A stretch of DNA of 63,979 nucleotides, filler included, from NCBI GenBank assembly GCA_964501035.1. It is 4 parts of 4 records of this genome, joined end to end, with 100 filler letters (N's around TTAATTAATTAA, not from the genome) between each part and the next. Parts side by side here need not be neighbours in the genome. Positions count along the whole stretch, not along the records: positions 1 to 20,766 come from CAZCRK010000023.1; 3 more parts are not named here. One strand, given 5' to 3'. The notes below the pieces were generated by a model. It did no database searches. It worked only from the letters and a program-made list of their open reading frames with translations, and was not told the origin of the DNA. Positions 1,721 to 9,415 of this stretch are shown here, one piece after another (positions within the stretch are counted from its first letter, which is position 1; each line of letters opens with the position of its first letter). Position numbers and translations under genes: made by a program.

Positions 1721-3952
1721 TTAAATACTACCAAATTTATAAACCATAGATAAATAAAAAGTTCGTTGGTCTTGTTTCTCATAATTATAAACTTGTCGCT
1801 CACCATCACCTGAATCGTAACTCAAATTTGATTCAAAAATATCGTTATCTAATAAATCAACTCCCTTAAATGTAATACGTAAGTGATCATCTAGAATTGA
1901 TAGTTGGTATGCAAAGTCTAGTACAAATTTTCCATTTTCCCATTGATATCCCTGTGGCGACTCTTGTTTTGACTTATAGGTTCCATTAATTTCAAATTCT
2001 CCAAAGTTTTGTGTTTTGTAAGATGCAATTAACCTACTGTGTCCGCCTTTAGTAATTCCATTTAATTGAGAGTTGCTGGCTTCTTTGGTTTCCAATACAT
2101 AATAATTTCCAGTAAGTCTTAATTCAACATCACGAAATGGATCAAGTTTAATCAAACCTTCAACCCCATTTAATATTCCTGACCCTGAATTTTCAAAAGA
2201 ATAAAATGGATTTAATTCATCAATATTTTCTACCCATTGAATAGGATCTTGTATGAAATGATTATACGAAGTTAAATCAAACTTTACGTTATTTATTGTC
2301 TTCGTTACTCCAAATTCAATCAAATTAACAAATTCAGGTTCTAGGTATGGATTACCGATTGTATCAGTTATAGAAAAACTATCAATTCGTGGGGTAGGAT
2401 CCAACTGTTTTGCACTGGGTCTATTAACCCGACTTCCAAAACTAGTTCTAAACTGTGTAAATGGGTTTAGTGAATACGTAAAATGTGCAGAAGGATATAG
2501 TTTAGAATAATTTCCGCTGATATTATCTATTTTTGTGTTTACCCATTCATATCTTAAACCTAGTTTAACATTTGCTCGTTCGTTCCATCGAAAAGAAGTT
2601 AAGCTATACAACGCATAAATGTCTTCATTAAATACAAAAACATCATCATTTTGTTGTTTATCAAAAGAATTTAACCGTCCTTTGAAACCAGTTTCAACAT
2701 GAATATCATTAACTTTAGTTCGATAATCTAAAGTAAGTACTTTTCTGTCCTGAATAATAGAACCATCAGTAGTAACCAAATGGTCTGTTAATTCTTGAGA
2801 TTCATTTTGAACATCATGAGAATATTCAGCATCCAAGGCACTGTATTTATTAAAGGAATTATAAGATCCAATTCCAAATACATGTGCATCAATTTCATTA
2901 GAAAACAATGTTTCATCTCCAGTATTTAGGGATTTATCAATACTACCATTATTTTTAATCAAACTACCTTCTATAGTAAAAAGATTATTTTTTGTGAAGG
3001 AATGTTTAATACCACCATTATAATAATTCAATTTAGAATTTCTAATATTGGTACTAGTAACTGAGGAATTTTCTAAAATATATTCGTGGATTGAATTTCC
3101 AGAATGTTCTGCCTTTTCGTAGTTTGTTTTTGCAAACAAGGTTGTGTTTGGTAATCGATAACTAAACGAAGAACCCATATTAAATTTATTCGTATTTCCT
3201 GCATTAACTGTGACTTCACCATTATACCCACTTATCTCTTCATCTTTTAGAACGAAATTGATTATTCCAGTCATCCCATCTGGATCATATTCCGAAGAAG
3301 GGTTTGTAATGATTTCTACACTCTCTATCATAGAAGCAGGAACTGGAACTGAAACTGCATTTGTTGATCTGTCTGTTCCTAAAATGCCTGTCCGCTTTTC
3401 ATTGACTAATACTGAAACATTGGTTGAGCCACGAAGTGAAATGGTGCCATCAGCTCCCACTTCAACTCCAGGGATTTTTTTAATTACATCACAGCATGTT
3501 CCGCCTGACGTTGCTTTATGGTCATCTAAATTAAACACTTTTTTATCTGCTTTAACTTCCAGCATTTTCTTTTGTGCAGTAACATTGACTTCTTCGCCTT
3601 CTAAACTACTTTGTTCAATAAAAATATCGCCAAAAGTCTTTTCAGGGTGGTTCTGATTACACAGCTCAAATGGAAGGCTCCAAAATGAATCAAAACCTAT
3701 AAACTTAACTACTATTCGATAGTTACCTTCAGGAACATTGTGAAATGCAAAATATCCTTCATTATCCGTCATTTGTCCCAACACGATTTTCTCATCTACC
3801 GAGCGAATAAGGGTGACTGTTGCAAATTCAACTGGACCCATCGTTCCGGTTTGCTTAACTGTGCCGTTAACTTTAGCTGCATAGATTAAATTTGTAAAAA
3901 TGGATAAAATTAGAATTGCAATAATTCTTGAAATTTTATTTTTTAAAAGCAT
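1721..3952 (-). CDS. TonB-dependent outer-membrane receptor (carboxypeptidase-regulatory-like N-domain, plug, beta-barrel)
   Basis: Signal peptide; plug motifs IKKIPGVEV, ISLRGS, IEIITNPSSEYDPDG.TGIINFVLK; GNPYLEPE; C-terminal aromatic strand YKF. Confidence 0.88.
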   Translation of the reverse strand: MLLKNKISRIIAILILSIFTNLIYAAKVNGTVKQTGTMGPVEFATVTLIRSVDEKIVLGQMTDNEGYFAFHNVPEGNYRIVVKFIGFDSFWSLPFELCNQNHPEKTFGDIFIEQSSLEGEEVNVTAQKKMLEVKADKKVFNLDDHKATSGGTCCDVIKKIPGVEVGADGTISLRGSTNVSVLVNEKRTGILGTDRSTNAVSVPVPASMIESVEIITNPSSEYDPDGMTGIINFVLKDEEISGYNGEVTVNAGNTNKFNMGSSFSYRLPNTTLFAKTNYEKAEHSGNSIHEYILENSSVTSTNIRNSKLNYYNGGIKHSFTKNNLFTIEGSLIKNNGSIDKSLNTGDETLFSNEIDAHVFGIGSYNSFNKYSALDAEYSHDVQNESQELTDHLVTTDGSIIQDRKVLTLDYRTKVNDIHVETGFKGRLNSFDKQQNDDVFVFNEDIYALYSLTSFRWNERANVKLGLRYEWVNTKIDNISGNYSKLYPSAHFTYSLNPFTQFRTSFGSRVNRPSAKQLDPTPRIDSFSITDTIGNPYLEPEFVNLIEFGVTKTINNVKFDLTSYNHFIQDPIQWVENIDELNPFYSFENSGSGILNGVEGLIKLDPFRDVELRLTGNYYVLETKEASNSQLNGITKGGHSRLIASYKTQNFGEFEINGTYKSKQESPQGYQWENGKFVLDFAYQLSILDDHLRITFKGVDLLDNDIFESNLSYDSGDGERQVYNYEKQDQRTFYLSMVYKFGSI

Positions 3953-3974: not shown

Positions 3975-4763
3975 TTAATGGCTATGATGTTCATTTTCAC
4001 CATGTTGATGGTGGTCATGATGTTCATCATTGTGATTATGTTGAATTGTATCTTCTTTTTCAACGGGTATTTCTTTATGTTCTATTTCTACAGAACTCTC
4101 TTCAAAATTAAAATATCCATTTAACTGAAAAATTAATAAGAAGATACCAGCCATTATCAATAATTGATTTGTTATTTTTGTAATACTTAGTGAGTATTTC
4201 CTCAGGAGCAATAAAATGGGAAAAGCAATCCCTAATGCTAGTATTTGACCAACCTCTACACCCGCATTAAAAGAAAGTATCTTGGAAAGTAAATGGGTAT
4301 GACCTAACTCAATTTGTTGCAATCGAGTCGATAACCCAAACCCATGAATGAGTCCAAAAATTAATACCATTACTACTTTATTCGGTGCTTCAATTGAAAA
4401 CCACTTATTGAAACCATCAAGGTTTTCAAATCCTTTATAAACAACACTGAATGCTATCACTGCATCAATCAAATAATAATTTGCATTTATCTCATAAAAT
4501 GTAGCAAAAACAAGAGTAATACTATGTCCAATTGTAAATGCAGTTATGAACTTTACAATATCCTTAAACTGTGTTAAAAAGAATATTACACCTATCAAAA
4601 ACAGAATATGATCATAACCAGTAACCATATGTTTTGCACCAAGGTAAAAATAGTCTAAAAGTCCACCTTGCACCATTTCTGTTTTATCAGATTCAGATAC
4701 ACCATGTGCAAAGATTAAGCCGGGTGTAAAGATTAAAGAAAGTTTTAATAATAAGTGTTTCAT
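3975..4763 (-). CDS. HupE/UreJ-family metal (Ni/Co) transporter with His-rich tail
   Basis: AHG after signal, GYDHILF, FTIGHSITL, FGLIHGFG, FNAGVEVGQ; tail HNHNDEHHDHHQHGENEHHSH. Confidence 0.88.
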   Translation of the reverse strand: MKHLLLKLSLIFTPGLIFAHGVSESDKTEMVQGGLLDYFYLGAKHMVTGYDHILFLIGVIFFLTQFKDIVKFITAFTIGHSITLVFATFYEINANYYLIDAVIAFSVVYKGFENLDGFNKWFSIEAPNKVVMVLIFGLIHGFGLSTRLQQIELGHTHLLSKILSFNAGVEVGQILALGIAFPILLLLRKYSLSITKITNQLLIMAGIFLLIFQLNGYFNFEESSVEIEHKEIPVEKEDTIQHNHNDEHHDHHQHGENEHHSH

Positions 4764-4886: not shown

Positions 4887-5306
4887 TTAAACGATTAAAA
4901 CTGTAGTTTTTATATCGGGAGGAATAGAATTGGTATTAACCTCAACTTTAATAAAAATAGGTTGAAGTTTTAATTTAAAATCATTAGTTGAAACATATTG
5001 AATCAATTCATTATCAATAAATTTATAACTTGTTGAATTTATTACAAAAGCTAAGTCAGGAGTGTAATTCCATAGATTGATATCAATGCAATTCTCACAA
5101 TCATCTTCATGTGTATCTTCTTTAGGTGTTGGAACTTTACAAGAAATGTCGCATCCAGCTTCGATATTTATATCACCATCGGTTTCAAAACATAAAACTG
5201 GTGCTTTGATTCCGCTTTGAGTTATTATACCAAAGCAAAATATCCACACTAAAAAGTTATTGATTGTTTGTAATCTTCTTGATTTCACTAATTCAATATA
5301 ATACAA
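4887..5306 (-). CDS. Small Cys-rich hypothetical protein, possible metal-responsive leader (start may be GTG at 5288)
   Basis: Hydrophobic N-terminus, VLCFETDG, CxxxC, CxxCxD, C-terminal IPP..TTVLIV; directly upstream of metal uptake genes. Confidence 0.6.
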   Translation of the reverse strand: MYYIELVKSRRLQTINNFLVWIFCFGIITQSGIKAPVLCFETDGDINIEAGCDISCKVPTPKEDTHEDDCENCIDINLWNYTPDLAFVINSTSYKFIDNELIQYVSTNDFKLKLQPIFIKVEVNTNSIPPDIKTTVLIV

Positions 5307-5325: not shown

Positions 5326-5360
5326 TGAAAATAATTTGTAACCTATTCTAATCATTATCA
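5326..5360. promoter_or_regulatory. Possible Fur-family boxes in divergent intergenic region
   Basis: TGAAAAT-A-ATTTGTA (5326-5340) and TTCTAAT-C-ATTATCA (5346-5360), partial matches to the 7-1-7 TGATAATnATTATCA box. Confidence 0.3.
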
Positions 5361-5370
5361 TCCAAAATTT

Positions 5371-5583
5371 ATGAAACAGATTACTAATTTACTTTATTCT
5401 TATAAACTACAACTAATAAGTTTAGTGCTTGGCGGTACAGCTGGTTATGCCTTTTATTATTTTATAGGATGTAATTCAGGTCACTGTATGATTACGGGAA
5501 ATCCATTTGTAAGTACAATTTATGGAATGGTATTAGGTTTAGTTTGGACGTGGCCTAATAAAGCAAGAAAGGCAAAGAAATGA
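5371..5583 (+). CDS. Small membrane protein, DUF6132-like
   Basis: GGTAGYAFYYFIGCNSGHCMITGNP (GCxxGxCxIT motif between two TM helices). Confidence 0.75.
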   Translation: MKQITNLLYSYKLQLISLVLGGTAGYAFYYFIGCNSGHCMITGNPFVSTIYGMVLGLVWTWPNKARKAKK

Positions 5584-5966
5584 AATATGGTTATCAACGT
5601 AAATTGAATCATGATTTTGATCACGTGGATGCAACAATACGTGAAAAACTTCAGGAACAAGGGTTTGGTATAGTGACAGAAATTGATGTTCAAAGCACAC
5701 TTAAAGAAAAAGTGAATATTGATTTTAGAAAATATAGAATTTTAGGCGCATGCAATCCTCCGTTAGCACATCAAGCACTTACTCATGAACTCGCAATTGG
5801 TTTATTATTGCCCTGTAATGTAGTTATTTGGGAAAATAACGATAAATCGGTTACAGTTTCAGCAATTGATACTCATGCAATGATGTCGATAACTGGAAGA
5901 GACGATATGGATGAAATGGCGAACCACGTAAACAGCTTACTACAAAAGGCAATCGATAATTTATGA
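5580..5966 (+). CDS. DUF302 domain protein
   Basis: GFGIVTEIDV, YRILGACNP, IGLLLPCNVV motifs; ATGA overlap with upstream gene. Confidence 0.9.
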   Translation: MKYGYQRKLNHDFDHVDATIREKLQEQGFGIVTEIDVQSTLKEKVNIDFRKYRILGACNPPLAHQALTHELAIGLLLPCNVVIWENNDKSVTVSAIDTHAMMSITGRDDMDEMANHVNSLLQKAIDNL

Positions 5967-6127
5967 ACGACTGGATACAATTTTTAGTTATTTATATTGT
6001 TTGGGTGTTAATGAATAGGTACTTGTTTCCTAAAATGGGCATACCAACGTGAGACAACCCGCAACCTCAGGTGAGGAAACCAATTTCATTAATTAAAAAA
6101 GAGGAAAATACGAATGCCAATGTATAA
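5963..6127 (+). CDS. Candidate 54-aa membrane-anchored selenoprotein (TGA 6050-6052 read as Sec); 29 aa if TGA is a stop
   Basis: ATG overlaps DUF302 stop (ATGA); MNDWIQFLVIYIVWVLMNRYLFPKMGIPT-TGA-DNPQPQVRKPISLIKKEENTNANV-TAA; fills the gap to the next gene; SECIS-like hairpin follows. Confidence 0.6.
6065..6076 (+). promoter_or_regulatory. Putative bacterial SECIS hairpin 1
   Basis: CCTC-AGGT-GAGG starting 12 nt after TGA 6050-6052; GGT at +18 to +20. Confidence 0.55.
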
Positions 6128-6311
6128 ATTTAGGTGTAAGACATGCGAAAAAGAATTCGATAAACTGGTCTTTGGATTTGATTCTTCAAATGTTGAATGT
6201 TCGCATTGTAATTCTAAAGATATTGAAAAATTGTTATCAGCACCTAGTTTGGGACAACCGCAAACTTCCTCTGGAGGATGTGGTGGTGGATCAGGATTTT
6301 CATGAGGATAA
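6114..6311 (+). CDS. FmdB-family zinc-ribbon protein, candidate penultimate Sec (GFS-U-G-stop); ends at 6305 if TGA is a stop
   Basis: MPMYKFRCKTC..ECSHC..EKLLS; Gly-rich tail GGCGGGSGFS then TGA GGA TAA; GAGG RBS. Confidence 0.75.
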
Positions 6312-6316
6312 GGAAG

Positions 6317-6333
6317 GAAATTTGGTGAATTTC
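6317..6333 (+). promoter_or_regulatory. Putative bacterial SECIS hairpin 2, overlapping the next start codon
   Basis: GAAATTT-GGT-GAATTTC starting 11 nt after TGA 6303-6305; GGT at +19 to +21. Confidence 0.55.
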
Positions 6334-7035
6334 AAAAATATAATTGTTTTAGTGTTAGGGTTGAGTATTATGGCGTGCGATTCAGAAAAATTAGATATTC
6401 AAGTAAATGTCCAGGGTAGATTAATGGATATTATGCATAATGGTGCACGAGATGGAATTGTACACATTGCTGATTTGTTAGGTGATAATGTTTATGGACT
6501 AGGTCCACTTGAAGGTTTAAACGGTGAGTATATCATCATTGATGGAAAACCTATTCTAACTCGTAGTGTAGATAGTAAGACTGCAAATATTGTAAAAGAC
6601 TATTCTACAGAAAAAGCATTGTTAGCTGTTACTGCTACAGTTCAAGATTGGAAATCAGTTGAAATTTCAAACCACTCCAGTATTGCATCGCTTGAAACGG
6701 AAATTCAAGAAATAGCTAAACAGTCAAACATAGATACAGAAAAGCCATTTCCATTTATGATTAAAGGAAATTTGGGTAAAGTAAATTGGCATATAATTCG
6801 ACCTTCTAAACCAGGTGGTTCACACGATGAACATTTAGCTGGAGCTTGGAAAGAAGAAGTGGATTCGATTGATGCTCAAATTTTGGGTTTTTATTCAAAC
6901 AAACATCATAGAATATTTACACATCATGATTCAAACGTTCATATGCACGTAGTTATAACCGAAAGTGGGTTATCTGGCCATATTGATGCTCTTGAAATTG
7001 GTGAAAAAGTAGAACTCTATTTGCCTGTAAAATAA
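6325..7035 (+). CDS. Acetolactate decarboxylase-like lipoprotein
   Basis: GTG start after AAGGAAGG; lipobox SIMA-C; YGLGPLEGLNGE, GFYS..H..FTHH..HMH..GHID metal-binding motifs. Confidence 0.7.
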   Translation: MNFKNIIVLVLGLSIMACDSEKLDIQVNVQGRLMDIMHNGARDGIVHIADLLGDNVYGLGPLEGLNGEYIIIDGKPILTRSVDSKTANIVKDYSTEKALLAVTATVQDWKSVEISNHSSIASLETEIQEIAKQSNIDTEKPFPFMIKGNLGKVNWHIIRPSKPGGSHDEHLAGAWKEEVDSIDAQILGFYSNKHHRIFTHHDSNVHMHVVITESGLSGHIDALEIGEKVELYLPVK

Positions 7036-7072
7036 CTTTTTAAGCCAGCCCCTTCTGATGTAGATTATTTTT

Positions 7073-7438
7073 ATGTCAGAGGATAAAATCCCATCAAATG
7101 ATGAAGAATTATTGCAAAATTGCATAGTTGAAACATTCCGCTCCAGTGGAAAAGGTGGACAACATGCAAATAAAACTGAATCGGCTGTAAGAATTACACA
7201 TATCCCAACGCAAATTTCTACAATTTGTCAAGATGAACGCAGCCAGTTACTCAATAAAAAGAAATGCATTATACAATTACGTGAAAAATTGATAAAGTTT
7301 TACGAAACGCCTAAAAAACGAATTCCTACAAAAAAACCTTATAAGGCTAAAGAAAAAGTTCTTGACACAAAGAAAAAACAATCTGTCAAAAAGCAATTAC
7401 GCAAAAAAATAGGATTTGATAATATTAATGAAGAATGA
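7073..7438 (+). CDS. arfB: Peptidyl-tRNA hydrolase ArfB/YaeJ-like ribosome rescue factor
   Basis: [21 protein letters not shown], basic tail KKRIPTK. Confidence 0.8.
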
Positions 7439-8183
7439 ACTTTTATCTTATCAGATTCTCGGTTATTCTGCAGGAATTCCATCGGAAAATAGAGGGGTAA
7501 GCTGTACTATTATTAGTACACATCAATCTGATTTCATGATTGACTGTGGTGAAGGCTCTTACTTGCAGTGGAAAAAGCATGGATACTCATGGAAGCGACT
7601 CAAATCGATATTTATTACCCATTTACATCCAGATCATTCCGGAGGGTTGGTGAATTTATTGTTTTACAGAAAACTCCTTGGTGTGTTAACACCTTTAACA
7701 ATTTATGGTCCACCAAATTTACAAGAATATTTAGAAAAATCATTTGAATTTCAAGGAGTAAATATAGAATATGATTTACATATTTATTCAATTGATGAAT
7801 TAGATTCTACCAAAATCGAAAGTGAAATATTTTTTACAACTACGCAGTTAGAGCATAAATTGCCGTGTTGGGGGATTAAAATTGAATCATCTAATAATTC
7901 AATAGCATTTTTTACAGATACACTACCAATCCAGCAAACTATTGATTTAGCTCAAGGAGTTGATGTGCTTATACATGAGGCAACTTTTATGGATAATGTT
8001 AAAGATTTACCAAAAAAAACTTTTCATACCACTGTCCACGAAGCTATGGATTTAGCAGATAAAATGAATGTAAAACGTCTCATTTTAACCCATTTTAGCC
8101 AACGGTACTCTGATAACCAGTTAAAAACGATTCATTATCACGGTGTACCTTGTGTAGTATTTAATAAAAGGCAATCTTTCTAA
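7428..8183 (+). CDS. rnz: Ribonuclease Z (metallo-beta-lactamase fold)
   Basis: [26 protein letters not shown]. Confidence 0.85.
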
Positions 8184-9415
8184 TGAAACACTTTAGTTTT
8201 ATTTTATTATATATTGTTGTTCAAAGTTTTCTTTTTGCAAATGAGCTACCGTATGTACTTGTAGTCTCATTTGATGGATTCAGACATGATTATTTTGAGA
8301 AAACAGAAACACCTAATTTTGATAAATTTGCTAAAAATGGAGTTAAAGCTAAATCTCTACAACCAGTTTTTCCATCATTGACCTTTCCGAATCATTATTC
8401 GATAGCAACTGGTGCATATTCAGGCACACATATGATCACAGGAAATAGTTTTTATGATAAGAAATTTAAAGAATATTATTCATTAAGAGATTCTGAAAAA
8501 GTACGAAACGGAAAATTTTATCAATCAGAACCTATTTGGGTAACCGCTGAAAGACAAGGCATTAAATCAGCTTCTTACTTTTGGGTTGGGTCTGAAGCAG
8601 AAATAAATGGATTCAGGCCATCTATTTATAAACATTACGACGGGAAAATTCCATTCTCTACTCGAGTAGATTCTGTAATATCTTGGCTTCAATATCCTAA
8701 AAAAAATAGACCCCATTTAATCATGTTGTACTTTAGTGAACCAGACCATACAGGGCATGAAGATGGTCCAAATCATAAAAATATTATTTCTACGATACAG
8801 GAAATGGATAATCTTTTAGGATATCTAATGAACCAATTACAATCCATCGAAGAAAATATTGAAATTCAAACCATTTTATTAAGTGATCACGGCATGTCCG
8901 ACGTTTCAAAAGAACGAATAGTTATATTGGACGAGTATATTGCTGAAATTGAAAATTGTTATGTAAACGGCAGGGGAGCACTTGTCCAGTTAGATTTAAA
9001 ATCAGAGATTTCTAACTCTTCAAGTATTGTGTGGAATCAGATAACGAAAATTCCACATTTATCTGCCTATAAAAAAGATGAACTTCCTGAACATTTCCAT
9101 TTTAACAACAGAAATACGGGTGAATTTGTATTGGTTGCTGACGATGGATGGTTAATCTATACAAAAGAATTTGTTGAAAATCGTGAGATTACTGTGAAGG
9201 GTATGCACGGATATGACCCTAAAATTATGAATATGCATGGTATATTTTTAGCTCAAGGGAGTAAAATAAGAAAAGATATAGAAATTGAATCATTTGAAAA
9301 TATTCACGTCTACCCTTTGATTTGTAATCTGTTAGAAATCACACCATACTCTAGTGAAATTGATGGTCCACAAGGTTCTATAGACATATTGAAACCTATC
9401 TTAGTTCATCCATAA
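8183..9415 (+). CDS. Secreted nucleotide pyrophosphatase/phosphodiesterase (alkaline phosphatase superfamily)
   Basis: SFDGFR, PSLTFPNHYSIATG, EPDHTGH, SDHGM, GMHGYD. Confidence 0.9.
   Translation: MKHFSFILLYIVVQSFLFANELPYVLVVSFDGFRHDYFEKTETPNFDKFAKNGVKAKSLQPVFPSLTFPNHYSIATGAYSGTHMITGNSFYDKKFKEYYSLRDSEKVRNGKFYQSEPIWVTAERQGIKSASYFWVGSEAEINGFRPSIYKHYDGKIPFSTRVDSVISWLQYPKKNRPHLIMLYFSEPDHTGHEDGPNHKNIISTIQEMDNLLGYLMNQLQSIEENIEIQTILLSDHGMSDVSKERIVILDEYIAEIENCYVNGRGALVQLDLKSEISNSSSIVWNQITKIPHLSAYKKDELPEHFHFNNRNTGEFVLVADDGWLIYTKEFVENREITVKGMHGYDPKIMNMHGIFLAQGSKIRKDIEIESFENIHVYPLICNLLEITPYSSEIDGPQGSIDILKPILVHP

Follow-up and report, generated by a model that had tools for sequence, protein, structure and literature searches.

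Two tandem candidate selenoprotein genes in a compact five-gene operon from a marine bacterial genome, with a possible role in thiol and sulfur stress

The stretch of DNA analyzed here (the window, 63,979 nucleotides including filler) was taken from NCBI GenBank assembly GCA_964501035.1, a genome of 1.87 Mb in 167 contigs (95.7% complete) that is referred to as G000; positions 1-20766 correspond to its contig C23, and positions 20767-63979 are N or lie off that contig. Between 5371 and 7035 the window contains five coupled genes encoding a DUF6132 protein, a DUF302 protein, a small membrane protein, an FmdB-type zinc ribbon and a lipoprotein (Table 1), which an earlier note, made from the sequence alone, had described as a compact operon with two tandem selenocysteine (Sec) candidates. 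Reading frames and Pfam/NCBIfam scores located every gene where it had been claimed, and the in-frame TGAs of the third and fourth genes behaved like Sec codons in every comparative test run. Both are very probably Sec codons, since the genome encodes the Sec machinery, the TGAs are invariant among relatives, Sec and Cys alternate at the first of them in a way that tracks selA, and the hairpins that follow the TGAs covary. The comparisons involved 41 relatives, 74 genomes of the order and 307 of the class, by means of six-frame searches reading through stops, and a profile search of 401 genomes of the phylum; the source environments are seawater and brine metagenomes, and the relatives bear Por_Secre_tail domains.

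Table 1. Features of the five-gene operon and of its surroundings, with positions along the window.
Feature	Position	Strand	Basis
DUF6132 two-helix membrane protein	5371..5583	+	PF19628 24.0 bits, cut-off 23.2 (borderline)
DUF302 protein, ordinary TGA stop	5580..5966	+	PF03625 91.6 bits, cut-off 23
Predicted membrane selenoprotein, 54 amino acids (aa), single-pass (..FPKMGIPT-U-DNPQ..)	5963..6127	+	Comparative tests; no Pfam/NCBIfam model
Predicted Sec codon 1 (TGA)	6050..6052	+	Invariant in 38/38 distinct loci; Cys in aligned homologues
Hairpin 1, like a Sec insertion sequence (SECIS), CCUC-AGGU-GAGG	6065..6076	+	Folding; class consensus
FmdB-family zinc ribbon, C-terminal tail Cys56...Sec64-Gly65 (predicted)	6114..6311	+	PF09723 48.9 bits, cut-off 34.4; TIGR02605 48.4 bits, cut-off 31.3
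Predicted Sec codon 2 (TGA), penultimate codon	6303..6305	+	Tail pattern in 37/37 loci
SECIS-like hairpin 2, GAAAUUU-GGU-GAAUUUC	6317..6333	+	Folding; class consensus; encloses lipoprotein start codon
His-rich acetolactate-decarboxylase-like lipoprotein, accessory member	6325..7035	+	PF03306 54.6 bits, cut-off 25
Extracytoplasmic function (ECF)-type promoter motif, TTGTAACC-N15-CATCC	5336..5363	+	7 nt upstream of the DUF6132 start codon (ATG)
Divergent Cys-rich open reading frame (ORF), 139 aa; context, outside the module	4887..5306	-	No family found
HupE/UreJ-type transporter, His-rich tail; context only	3975..4763	-	PF13795 183.5 bits
TonB-type receptor; context	1721-3952	-	Behind HupE

The genes are tightly joined: successive frames share 4 nt (ATGA) at 5580 and again at 5963, and 14 nt at 6114, whereas 11-14 nt separate the FmdB gene from the lipoprotein gene, which starts at GTG 6325 or TTG 6322. 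The DUF6132 protein, for which the homolog of a relative reached 29.8 bits in the Pfam scan, displays the loop GC-NSGH-C, a Cx4C motif (pattern GC-x2-G-x-C) with G33, C34, G37 and C39 invariant in 19/19 relatives. The DUF302 protein (128 aa, without signal peptide), whose nearest relative of known structure is Thermus TT1751 (PDB 1J3M, E 7e-19), retains Cys58 and Cys79 in all 22 relatives aligned, and the cysteine patterns that had been noticed in both proteins were in this manner borne out. The reading frame of the membrane protein, MNDWIQFLVIYIVWVLMNRYLFPKMGIPT-U-DNPQPQVRKPISLIKKEENTNANV (U for the TGA at 6050), contains one N-terminal membrane helix with the predicted Sec about 8 residues past it; based on the positive-inside rule, this residue could perhaps face the cytoplasm. 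No Pfam or NCBIfam model matches the Sec form or the Cys form of this protein, a word-index protein search gave no match for it, a look-up of the Cys forms in the ESM Atlas returned only "hypothetical protein", and homology to DUF6132 was rejected (hhalign probability 0.4%). The FmdB protein would be a cytosolic zinc ribbon with a flexible tail that carries an invariant Cys and, seven residues on, the penultimate Sec. Its gene ends ...GGCGGGSGFS-U-G-TAA, the TGA being followed by GGA TAA. Its knuckle residues C8, C11, C29 and C32 (two CxxC) are invariant; assignment to a subtype of FmdB with Sec in the knuckles was rejected, as the four knuckle positions are Cys codons and the sole TGA is at residue 64.

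The first TGA is conserved well beyond the genus. Homologs of the membrane protein that have a single TGA, at the matching position, were found in 9/41 relatives and 11/74 genomes of the order, weaker matches (one 23-aa fragment and three stop-free matches inside long ORFs) having been set aside as false. In the class, 63 of 307 genomes yielded 65 matches, each with the TGA at this column and two with one further stop. Across the 38 distinct loci the entropy is zero at the TGA column and 1.9 bits at the last base of the Thr codon before it; for the Pro located three codons past the TGA (32/38 loci) it amounts to 0.77, 0.88 and 1.88 bits at the first, second and third codon position, evidencing a coding pattern beyond TGA 1. 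Over the 20 codons that follow this TGA, G000 and the other genome of its genus (G001) show 5 synonymous and 5 non-synonymous differences. TGA 1 was also unchanged in seawater and brine contigs from three studies (X1, X2, X4) and TGA 2 in contigs from two of these (X1, X2), one run of which may be the source sample; just after TGA 1 the X4 strain has one synonymous change plus D31G, the latter toward the class consensus. A frameshift or faulty assembly is suggested at one locus (L018/L064, G003:C38), where the membrane protein gene lacks a standard in-frame start codon and its N-terminal helix is divided between two frames. Two loci upstream of FmdB-Sec genes (L229 in G092 and L233 in G317) read ..ACC-TGA.. 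followed by a CCUCAGG(A/C)UGAGG hairpin, so that the membrane selenoprotein appears to extend to one more family and to another of the classes within the phylum.

At the TGA 1 column Sec alternates with Cys. A profile search of 1.84 billion protein representatives produced 118 matches at E ≤0.001 (none at 1e-10), of which 36 have a length of exactly 29 aa, equal to that of the segment preceding the TGA (P0028, which was read, ends ...GIST). The longer library matches (43 sequences) are mostly Cys forms of the type ..W..LNRW.LP.FG[IV].T-C-MSGAC..., and a 40-sequence alignment showed W14, G26, T29 and C/U30 as invariant. Two library proteins, P0009 and P0104, carry Trp at the Sec column (..GIST-W-M..), suggesting translation of TGA as Trp during gene calling. 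With each species represented by one genome, a scan detected 80 loci in other phyla (Planctomycetota, Desulfobacterota-type, Myxococcota-type, Acidobacteriota, Verrucomicrobiota and Omnitrophota records), 74 of them with the core motif, in 31 cases with TGA (T-U-MSxxC) and in 43 with Cys. Strong hairpins with GGU, GUC or GUU loops and differing stems occur at about +15 in the 31 TGA forms. In these phyla the protein measures 45-80 aa with one helix, and the Cys form has a Cx4C beside the membrane helix. The occurrence of TGA forms in genomes without the Sec genes would speak against the Sec reading; they were found with selA in 11/11 carrier genomes of the order and, among ten Sec-form and ten Cys-form loci of other phyla chosen by form before selA was looked for, selA scored above cut-off in 10/10 Sec-form genomes vs 3/10 Cys-form genomes, a comparison in which genome completeness is unknown and the genomes are not independent.

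The FmdB gene follows the membrane protein gene in 37/38 distinct loci, the 38th ending 100 nt past TGA 1. All 37 share the tail C-x(3-8)-[SG]G[FY][STG]-U-[AGV](x)-stop and, at the nucleotide level, a TGA, then G[CGT]N and the stop, with or without one codon between these two; C56, G61 and U64 do not vary, and F62 hardly does. A phylum-wide profile detected the FmdB family in 196/401 genomes at E ≤1e-8, and among the 150 matches listed all those reaching profile positions 69-70 carry one TGA, the others, including that of the window, ending at position 68 or earlier, just before the TGA. FmdB genes ending in U were present in 19/20 further loci of other families and classes, alone or behind ArsR, DUF302 or rhodanese genes, indicating that the FmdB-Sec family is wider than the membrane protein family. 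The only record retrieved for this FmdB by a word-index protein search was that of the window itself, 63 aa long and without the last two residues.

The note had also reported a hairpin with a GGT loop after each TGA, and both hairpins exist, albeit alone they are thermodynamically unremarkable. Across the class, the FmdB hairpin lies in the 3' untranslated region, starts 13-17 nt past the UGA and has the form UCUGC-GGUC/AGUU-GCAGA. In 27 sequences from outside the order of the window, 81.0% of its cells are paired vs 67.1% in shuffles, 7/7 pairs are changed on both sides, and the covariation is 0.491 vs 0.221 when shuffled (0/500 shuffles reach it) and 0.08-0.15 with the partner slid. Hairpin 1 lies inside the coding sequence (class form CCUCA-GGU/GUC/GUG-UGAGG; 36 sequences, 84.7% of cells paired), and shows compensatory changes in 4/6 pairs with a covariation of 0.235 vs 0.122 (0/500 shuffles), a signal that is partly confounded by a conserved P-Q-x-E peptide. 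The copies in the window depart from these forms, hairpin 1 being one base out of register with the class consensus and hairpin 2 an AU-rich variant. A hairpin with a GGT loop at +10 to +22 follows about 2% of the stops of frames of at least 100 codons in the genome (11/534 TGA, 23/1175 TAA and 7/355 TAG), by a criterion that was fitted post hoc, once both hairpins were known; it is present after TGA 1 and TGA 2 and absent after both ordinary TGA stops upstream.

The genome encodes the enzymes and the tRNA needed for Sec insertion: selA (523.1 bits) and selB (375.2 bits) are adjacent to each other, selD reaches 378.8 bits and contains one in-frame TGA itself, and tRNA-Sec scores 65.8 bits vs a gathering score of 47. 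The three sel genes are located on contigs C13 and C6, unlinked to the operon. At the order level selA was detected in 65/74 genomes, and in 32/32 of those of good quality. The selD gene (C13:7047-7973, L001) reads ..STGAG-U-ACKL.. and is followed there by a GUCC-AUC-GGAC hairpin with no GG in its loop, which indicates that the SECIS elements of this organism are heterogeneous. TGA ends 534 of the 2064 frames of at least 100 codons in the genome, so a general reassignment of TGA was rejected. Within the operon too TGA is an ordinary stop, as the DUF6132 and DUF302 genes end in TGA (5581 and 5964), right at the next ATG, without GGT-loop hairpins.

Could one or both TGAs be ordinary stops, leaving a 29-aa peptide and an FmdB protein ending in GFS, with hairpins that are incidental or regulate the next gene? 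This would agree with public gene calls, which end at the TGAs, and with the frequent use of TGA as a stop in this genome; moreover, hairpin 2 covers the start codon of the lipoprotein gene and could be a translational element. The hairpins of the window are weak (-4.8 kcal/mol, z -0.07, and -4.2 kcal/mol, z -0.54), no better than shuffles, and this counts in favor of ordinary stops and against Sec codons. Further results also count against Sec codons. A covariance model (R1) built on the 27 FmdB hairpins from other orders gave 20 matches at E ≤10 and none at the TGA at 6303 of the window; over the whole of G000 it gave zero matches, although the model is information-poor and cannot decide; and no FmdB tail with Cys in place of Sec was present among the matches listed from the 401 genomes of the phylum, other phyla not having been searched. 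Nevertheless, the comparative data contradict the presence of ordinary stops, in that a conserved frame with a coding pattern continues past TGA 1, Sec and Cys alternate at its column with the Sec form tracking selA, a true stop lies 1-2 codons past TGA 2 in 37/37 loci with the first intervening codon always beginning with G, and both hairpins covary across the class. Ordinary termination is accordingly regarded as highly improbable, and UGA recoding very probably proceeds by the usual bacterial route that involves SelA, SelB, SelD, tRNA-Sec and a hairpin just past the UGA.

The genes that surround the two selenoprotein genes in relatives were examined in 18 usable loci of the class plus the window, the proteins being clustered and representatives scanned against Pfam. 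The gene set is kept together across the class, typically in the order thioredoxin, ECF sigma factor, anti-sigma factor, DUF1858, exported rhodanese, DUF6132, DUF302, membrane selenoprotein, FmdB-Sec and MATE. In the upstream part, a CitMHS/TrkA_C permease was counted in 11 loci, thioredoxin in 12, the ECF sigma factor in 13, the anti-sigma factor in 11 and DUF1858 in 6; for the rest, a rhodanese with signal or anchor was counted in 10, DUF6132 in 14, DUF302 in 16 and MATE in 10. The rhodanese loop is CRSGNRS in 9/10, and the motif HxxxCxxC of the anti-sigma factor is present in 9/11 relatives as well as in a copy on contig C18 of G000. In a genome of the same family as the window (G018; L242, C52 ~6368-8374), genes for an SQR-like protein, DsrC (108 bits) and a DsrE-like protein (113.6 bits) are inserted between the anti-sigma factor and DUF6132, and the pair is followed by a glutaredoxin/GST_N-like gene, a di-haem peroxidase and a multicopper oxidase, the latter being also downstream of the pair in G043. 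In other phyla the commonest neighbor is a rhodanese/YgaP-like_TM gene located directly upstream on the same strand (23/74 loci); in the vicinity are ECF sigma (12), HlyD (12), ArsR (9), AcrB (9), thioredoxin (8), TauE (7) and Pyr_redox_2 (7) genes, and MacB efflux genes are also found near the membrane protein. A conserved ORF of 110-114 aa (..IPSEYPDP.QPAGSHFGRA.WYLF..) without Pfam match was observed between the anti-sigma and DUF1858 genes in L234 and L235 (G089, G090), and a similar one in L101. Published accounts place DUF302 genes in sox clusters and in the sqr operon of Synechocystis (passages of PMC5037610 and PMC5061849).

A candidate promoter links these genes. TGTAAC[CT]-N15-CATC[CTA], or a near variant, precedes the thioredoxin gene of the thioredoxin/sigma/anti-sigma set in 13/13 relatives, and the motif upstream of the operon occurs once in the 64-kb window vs 0.02 expected and is kept in G001. 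In G000 the thioredoxin, sigma and anti-sigma genes are on contig C18 behind the variant GTAACT-N15-CCCTC, and the rhodanese, a 230-aa lipoprotein encoded on C30, is behind ATTTGTAACT-N15-CATCT. The motif was also detected before the SQR-like gene and the multicopper oxidase gene in G018 and G043. In another class, GTAAC[CGT]-N15-[CT][AG]TC variants could be seen by eye 40-65 nt before 7/7 stand-alone FmdB-Sec genes, of which 2/7 pass a regular expression looser than the promoter motif. A sigma-70 promoter scan found 13 sites vs 15 expected, a terminator scan found none, and the sole Rfam match was a sub-threshold rseX off the operon. Based on the motif and on the recurrent sigma/anti-sigma pair, the operon probably belongs to an ECF regulon.

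As to function, the note had proposed a thiol/selenol-based module for the handling of metals or of sulfur/selenium. The thiol/selenol basis stands, and the genomic context leans, by a little, to a role in sulfur or thiol stress over one in metals. The best explanation at present, which we hold to be somewhat more probable than not, is that the two selenoproteins form part of an ECF-controlled regulon that responds to thiol or reactive-sulfur stress at the cell membrane. Several observations count against it: the function of the module is drawn from gene neighborhood only; in G000 neither the rhodanese gene nor those for thioredoxin and sigma lie beside the operon; the strict motif is unenriched genome-wide (7 vs 5 expected from base composition), its information lying solely in its position ahead of two genes of the cluster; the single anti-sigma representative scanned against Pfam matched no family, zf-HC2 included; and metal-related genes recur nearby (ArsR, ArsC-like LMWPc, multicopper oxidase, HupE, RND/HlyD efflux).

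These last genes make a metal or metalloid role (Zn, Ni, Cu, Hg, As), in which the Cys...Sec tail and the juxtamembrane Sec would bind soft metals and pass them to transporters or reductases, a serious rival, even though it is judged unlikely. ArsR, LMWPc and DUF523 genes replace the sigma pair upstream in the loci of one family (f3), and two other families (f5 and f27) have ArsR as well; to this may be added the multicopper oxidase downstream in G018 and G043, the HlyD, AcrB and MacB efflux genes near the membrane protein in other phyla, the His-rich lipoprotein, and a DUF302 gene linked to arsenic genes (PMC5061849, as far as the available text goes). On the other hand, the recurrent partners perform sulfur transfer and thiol redox reactions, with rhodanese in 10/18 class loci and 23/74 loci elsewhere, and thioredoxin, DsrE, DsrC, SQR-like and TauE genes also among them. 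ArsR-family regulators, moreover, include persulfide sensors. The HupE gene, which adjoins the operon in the window and in G001 and from which a metal-uptake link through a shared promoter had been deduced, lends little to this role: HupE and TonB do lie on the opposite strand as claimed, but the gene directly divergent from the operon is the unannotated Cys-rich ORF, the operon has an ECF-type motif of its own, and the HupE neighborhood is common only to G001 and absent from the loci of 21 other relatives, so that a shared promoter as a functional link was rejected. In G001 HupE is flanked by OEP and HlyD/RND-like efflux genes in a row headed by the Cys-rich ORF, which places it in an efflux-type rather than an uptake operon.

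A third possibility is that the operon serves selenium trafficking, i.e., uptake, detoxification or delivery of selenide or selenopersulfide, for instance to SelD, with the rhodanese and the Sec/Cys proteins as carriers. Two selenoproteins in one operon and the near-universal selA of the lineage would fit such a function, and the in vivo selenium donor for SelD is still described as unresolved (PMC13188914, in the portion available). The Cys form, however, is present in genomes where selA was not found (7/10), and thus the core role of the membrane protein cannot depend on selenium use; in addition, the operon is unlinked to selD, selA and selB. Selenium trafficking is considered improbable.

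If the thiol/reactive-sulfur stress reading is correct, the following sequence of events can be envisaged. Oxidation or persulfidation of thiols would free the sigma factor from the HxxxCxxC anti-sigma factor, both of them encoded on another contig in G000, and the freed sigma factor would transcribe the operon from the GTAACC-N15-CATCC promoter together with the thioredoxin and the exported rhodanese. At the membrane, the rhodanese with its CRSGNRS loop, the Cx4C loop of DUF6132 and the juxtamembrane Sec could accept sulfane sulfur or oxidizing equivalents, and the Cys...Sec arm of FmdB, like the GCUG arm of thioredoxin reductase, might resolve the adducts and pass them to DUF302 and thioredoxin. 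A more speculative proposal, which we consider doubtful, is that the membrane selenoprotein, DUF6132, the exported rhodanese and the FmdB arm constitute a relay of micro-proteins that moves reducing equivalents or sulfane sulfur through the inner membrane. Such a relay might conceivably be a selenium-using functional analog of DsbD/CcdA turned on by a redox-sensing ECF switch, an idea to which we give a similarly low probability. Were it true, its FmdB component would be widespread within a large marine phylum, and its membrane component would be present, as Cys or Sec, in at least six phyla.

The lipoprotein is better viewed as an accessory member. Its signal reads ...LGLSIMAC, and an AAL_decarboxy-like gene is next to or near the pair in 6/23 loci (window, G001, G018, G043, G213 and G204). 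Its identification as a true acetolactate decarboxylase was rejected (equivalog TIGR01252, 40.7 bits vs a cut-off of 180.65), and a sequence search found zero relatives in the PDB. Right after the operon (7073-7438, plus strand) the window encodes a 121-aa protein with only the RF-1/GGQ domain (87.6 bits; ArfB model 53.8 bits vs a cut-off of 100), whose gene overlaps the following one, with the same layout in G001; the proximity of a release-factor-like rescue protein to two genes with UGA recoding may be a coincidence. The divergent Cys-rich ORF begins with a hydrophobic stretch and shows 62% identity to its counterpart in G001 (L241 5741-6139).

Should the assignments hold, two families would be added to a catalog of about 119, both of them truncated or missed by current gene calling. 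The membrane family would be among the smallest membrane selenoproteins proposed, and would represent an unannotated partner of YgaP-type rhodaneses in at least six phyla. FmdB is a very common zinc ribbon without assigned function, and a Sec in its tail offers a handle on the role of such tails; the shared promoter motif together with the selenoproteins outlines a testable ECF regulon (thioredoxin, rhodanese, DUF302, DUF6132) in abundant, mostly uncultured marine bacteria, providing as well a concrete biochemical setting for DUF302 and DUF6132.

The module had been called undescribed, and no description of it was found in Pfam, NCBIfam 20.0, Table 1 of PMC13188914 or the literature searches. 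That table (2026; 119 families) includes, in the part available, neither an FmdB with Sec in the tail nor a membrane family with T-U, and a literature search on selenoproteins with FmdB, DUF302, YgaP, Marinisomatota and zinc ribbon gave nothing closer than the systems compared below. Both families appear new to the catalogs checked, the families of Haft and Tolstoy (2025) and Xiao and Zhang (2025) having been compared through NCBIfam 20.0 and the review table only; a prior description may exist in the supplements of these two works. The NCBIfam selenoprotein models (UXX-star, KCU-star, Tso, Sao and others) match neither of the two window proteins at E ≤0.1, nor any of 7 Cys forms, 1 further Sec form and 2 further FmdB members at E ≤1.

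The closest precedent for the zinc ribbon is the FmdB-family selenoprotein of the GOS metagenome, known from two sequences with CxxU (PMC2398784) and listed as UxxU in Table 1 of PMC13188914 (U/CxxU or UxxU in reviews), as far as these sources were accessible. It shares with the FmdB protein of the window the TIGR02605/PF09723 domain family, the small zinc ribbon and the marine origin, and differs in that, in the available descriptions, its Sec replaces cysteines of the CxxC knuckles. In the window form the knuckles are all Cys, the Sec is penultimate or antepenultimate in the tail and the hairpin is located in the 3' untranslated region. A C-terminal Sec is known from thioredoxin reductase, which ends in GCUG. 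The bacterial UXX-star and KCU-star families are named in the accessible part of PMC13188914 (Table 1). As in these C-terminal-Sec selenoproteins, the Sec of FmdB lies 1-3 residues from the C-terminus, in a flexible tail with a nearby Cys able to form a selenenylsulfide; unlike them, it has no flavoprotein body and its Cys-to-Sec spacing is 4-9 residues instead of the two being adjacent. Models NF041114, NF041211 and NF033934 did not match the three FmdB members scanned.

For the membrane protein, a relation to YgaP-type membrane rhodaneses (PF00581 + PF11127) is suggested by its position directly downstream of them in other phyla and by the Cx4C next to the helix in the Cys form, but it is a separate one-helix protein of 45-80 aa, and hmmscan with PF11127 gave no match in the window protein, 7 Cys-form homologs and one Sec-form relative. 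The Tso "three selenoprotein operon" (Haft and Tolstoy, 2025), which includes the rhodanese/DsbD-like TsoB with the motif UxxxxU according to the available text of PMC13188914, resembles the present system as a multi-selenoprotein operon with a rhodanese and a membrane protein bearing U/C-x4-U/C; none of the corresponding models (NF045694, NF045695, NF045708, NF045809 and NF047643) gave a match in the proteins scanned.

What the operon has in common with the sox clusters and the Synechocystis sqr operon in which other DUF302 genes lie (passages of PMC5037610 and PMC5061849) is the domain and an association with genes of sulfur oxidation or sulfide. Here, DUF302 is coupled to two predicted selenoproteins. 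The thiol-stress regulon SigR-RsrA of Streptomyces comprises an ECF sigma factor, an HxxxCxxC anti-sigma factor and a thioredoxin gene in an autoregulated operon. The clusters analyzed here share with it the ECF sigma factor, the small HxxxCxxC anti-sigma factor and the thioredoxin gene, and differ from it in the promoter motif, GTAAC[CT]-N15-CATC, in the anti-sigma representative scanned, which gave no match to Pfam zf-HC2, and in the proposed members, which include two selenoproteins, DUF302, DUF6132 and an exported rhodanese.

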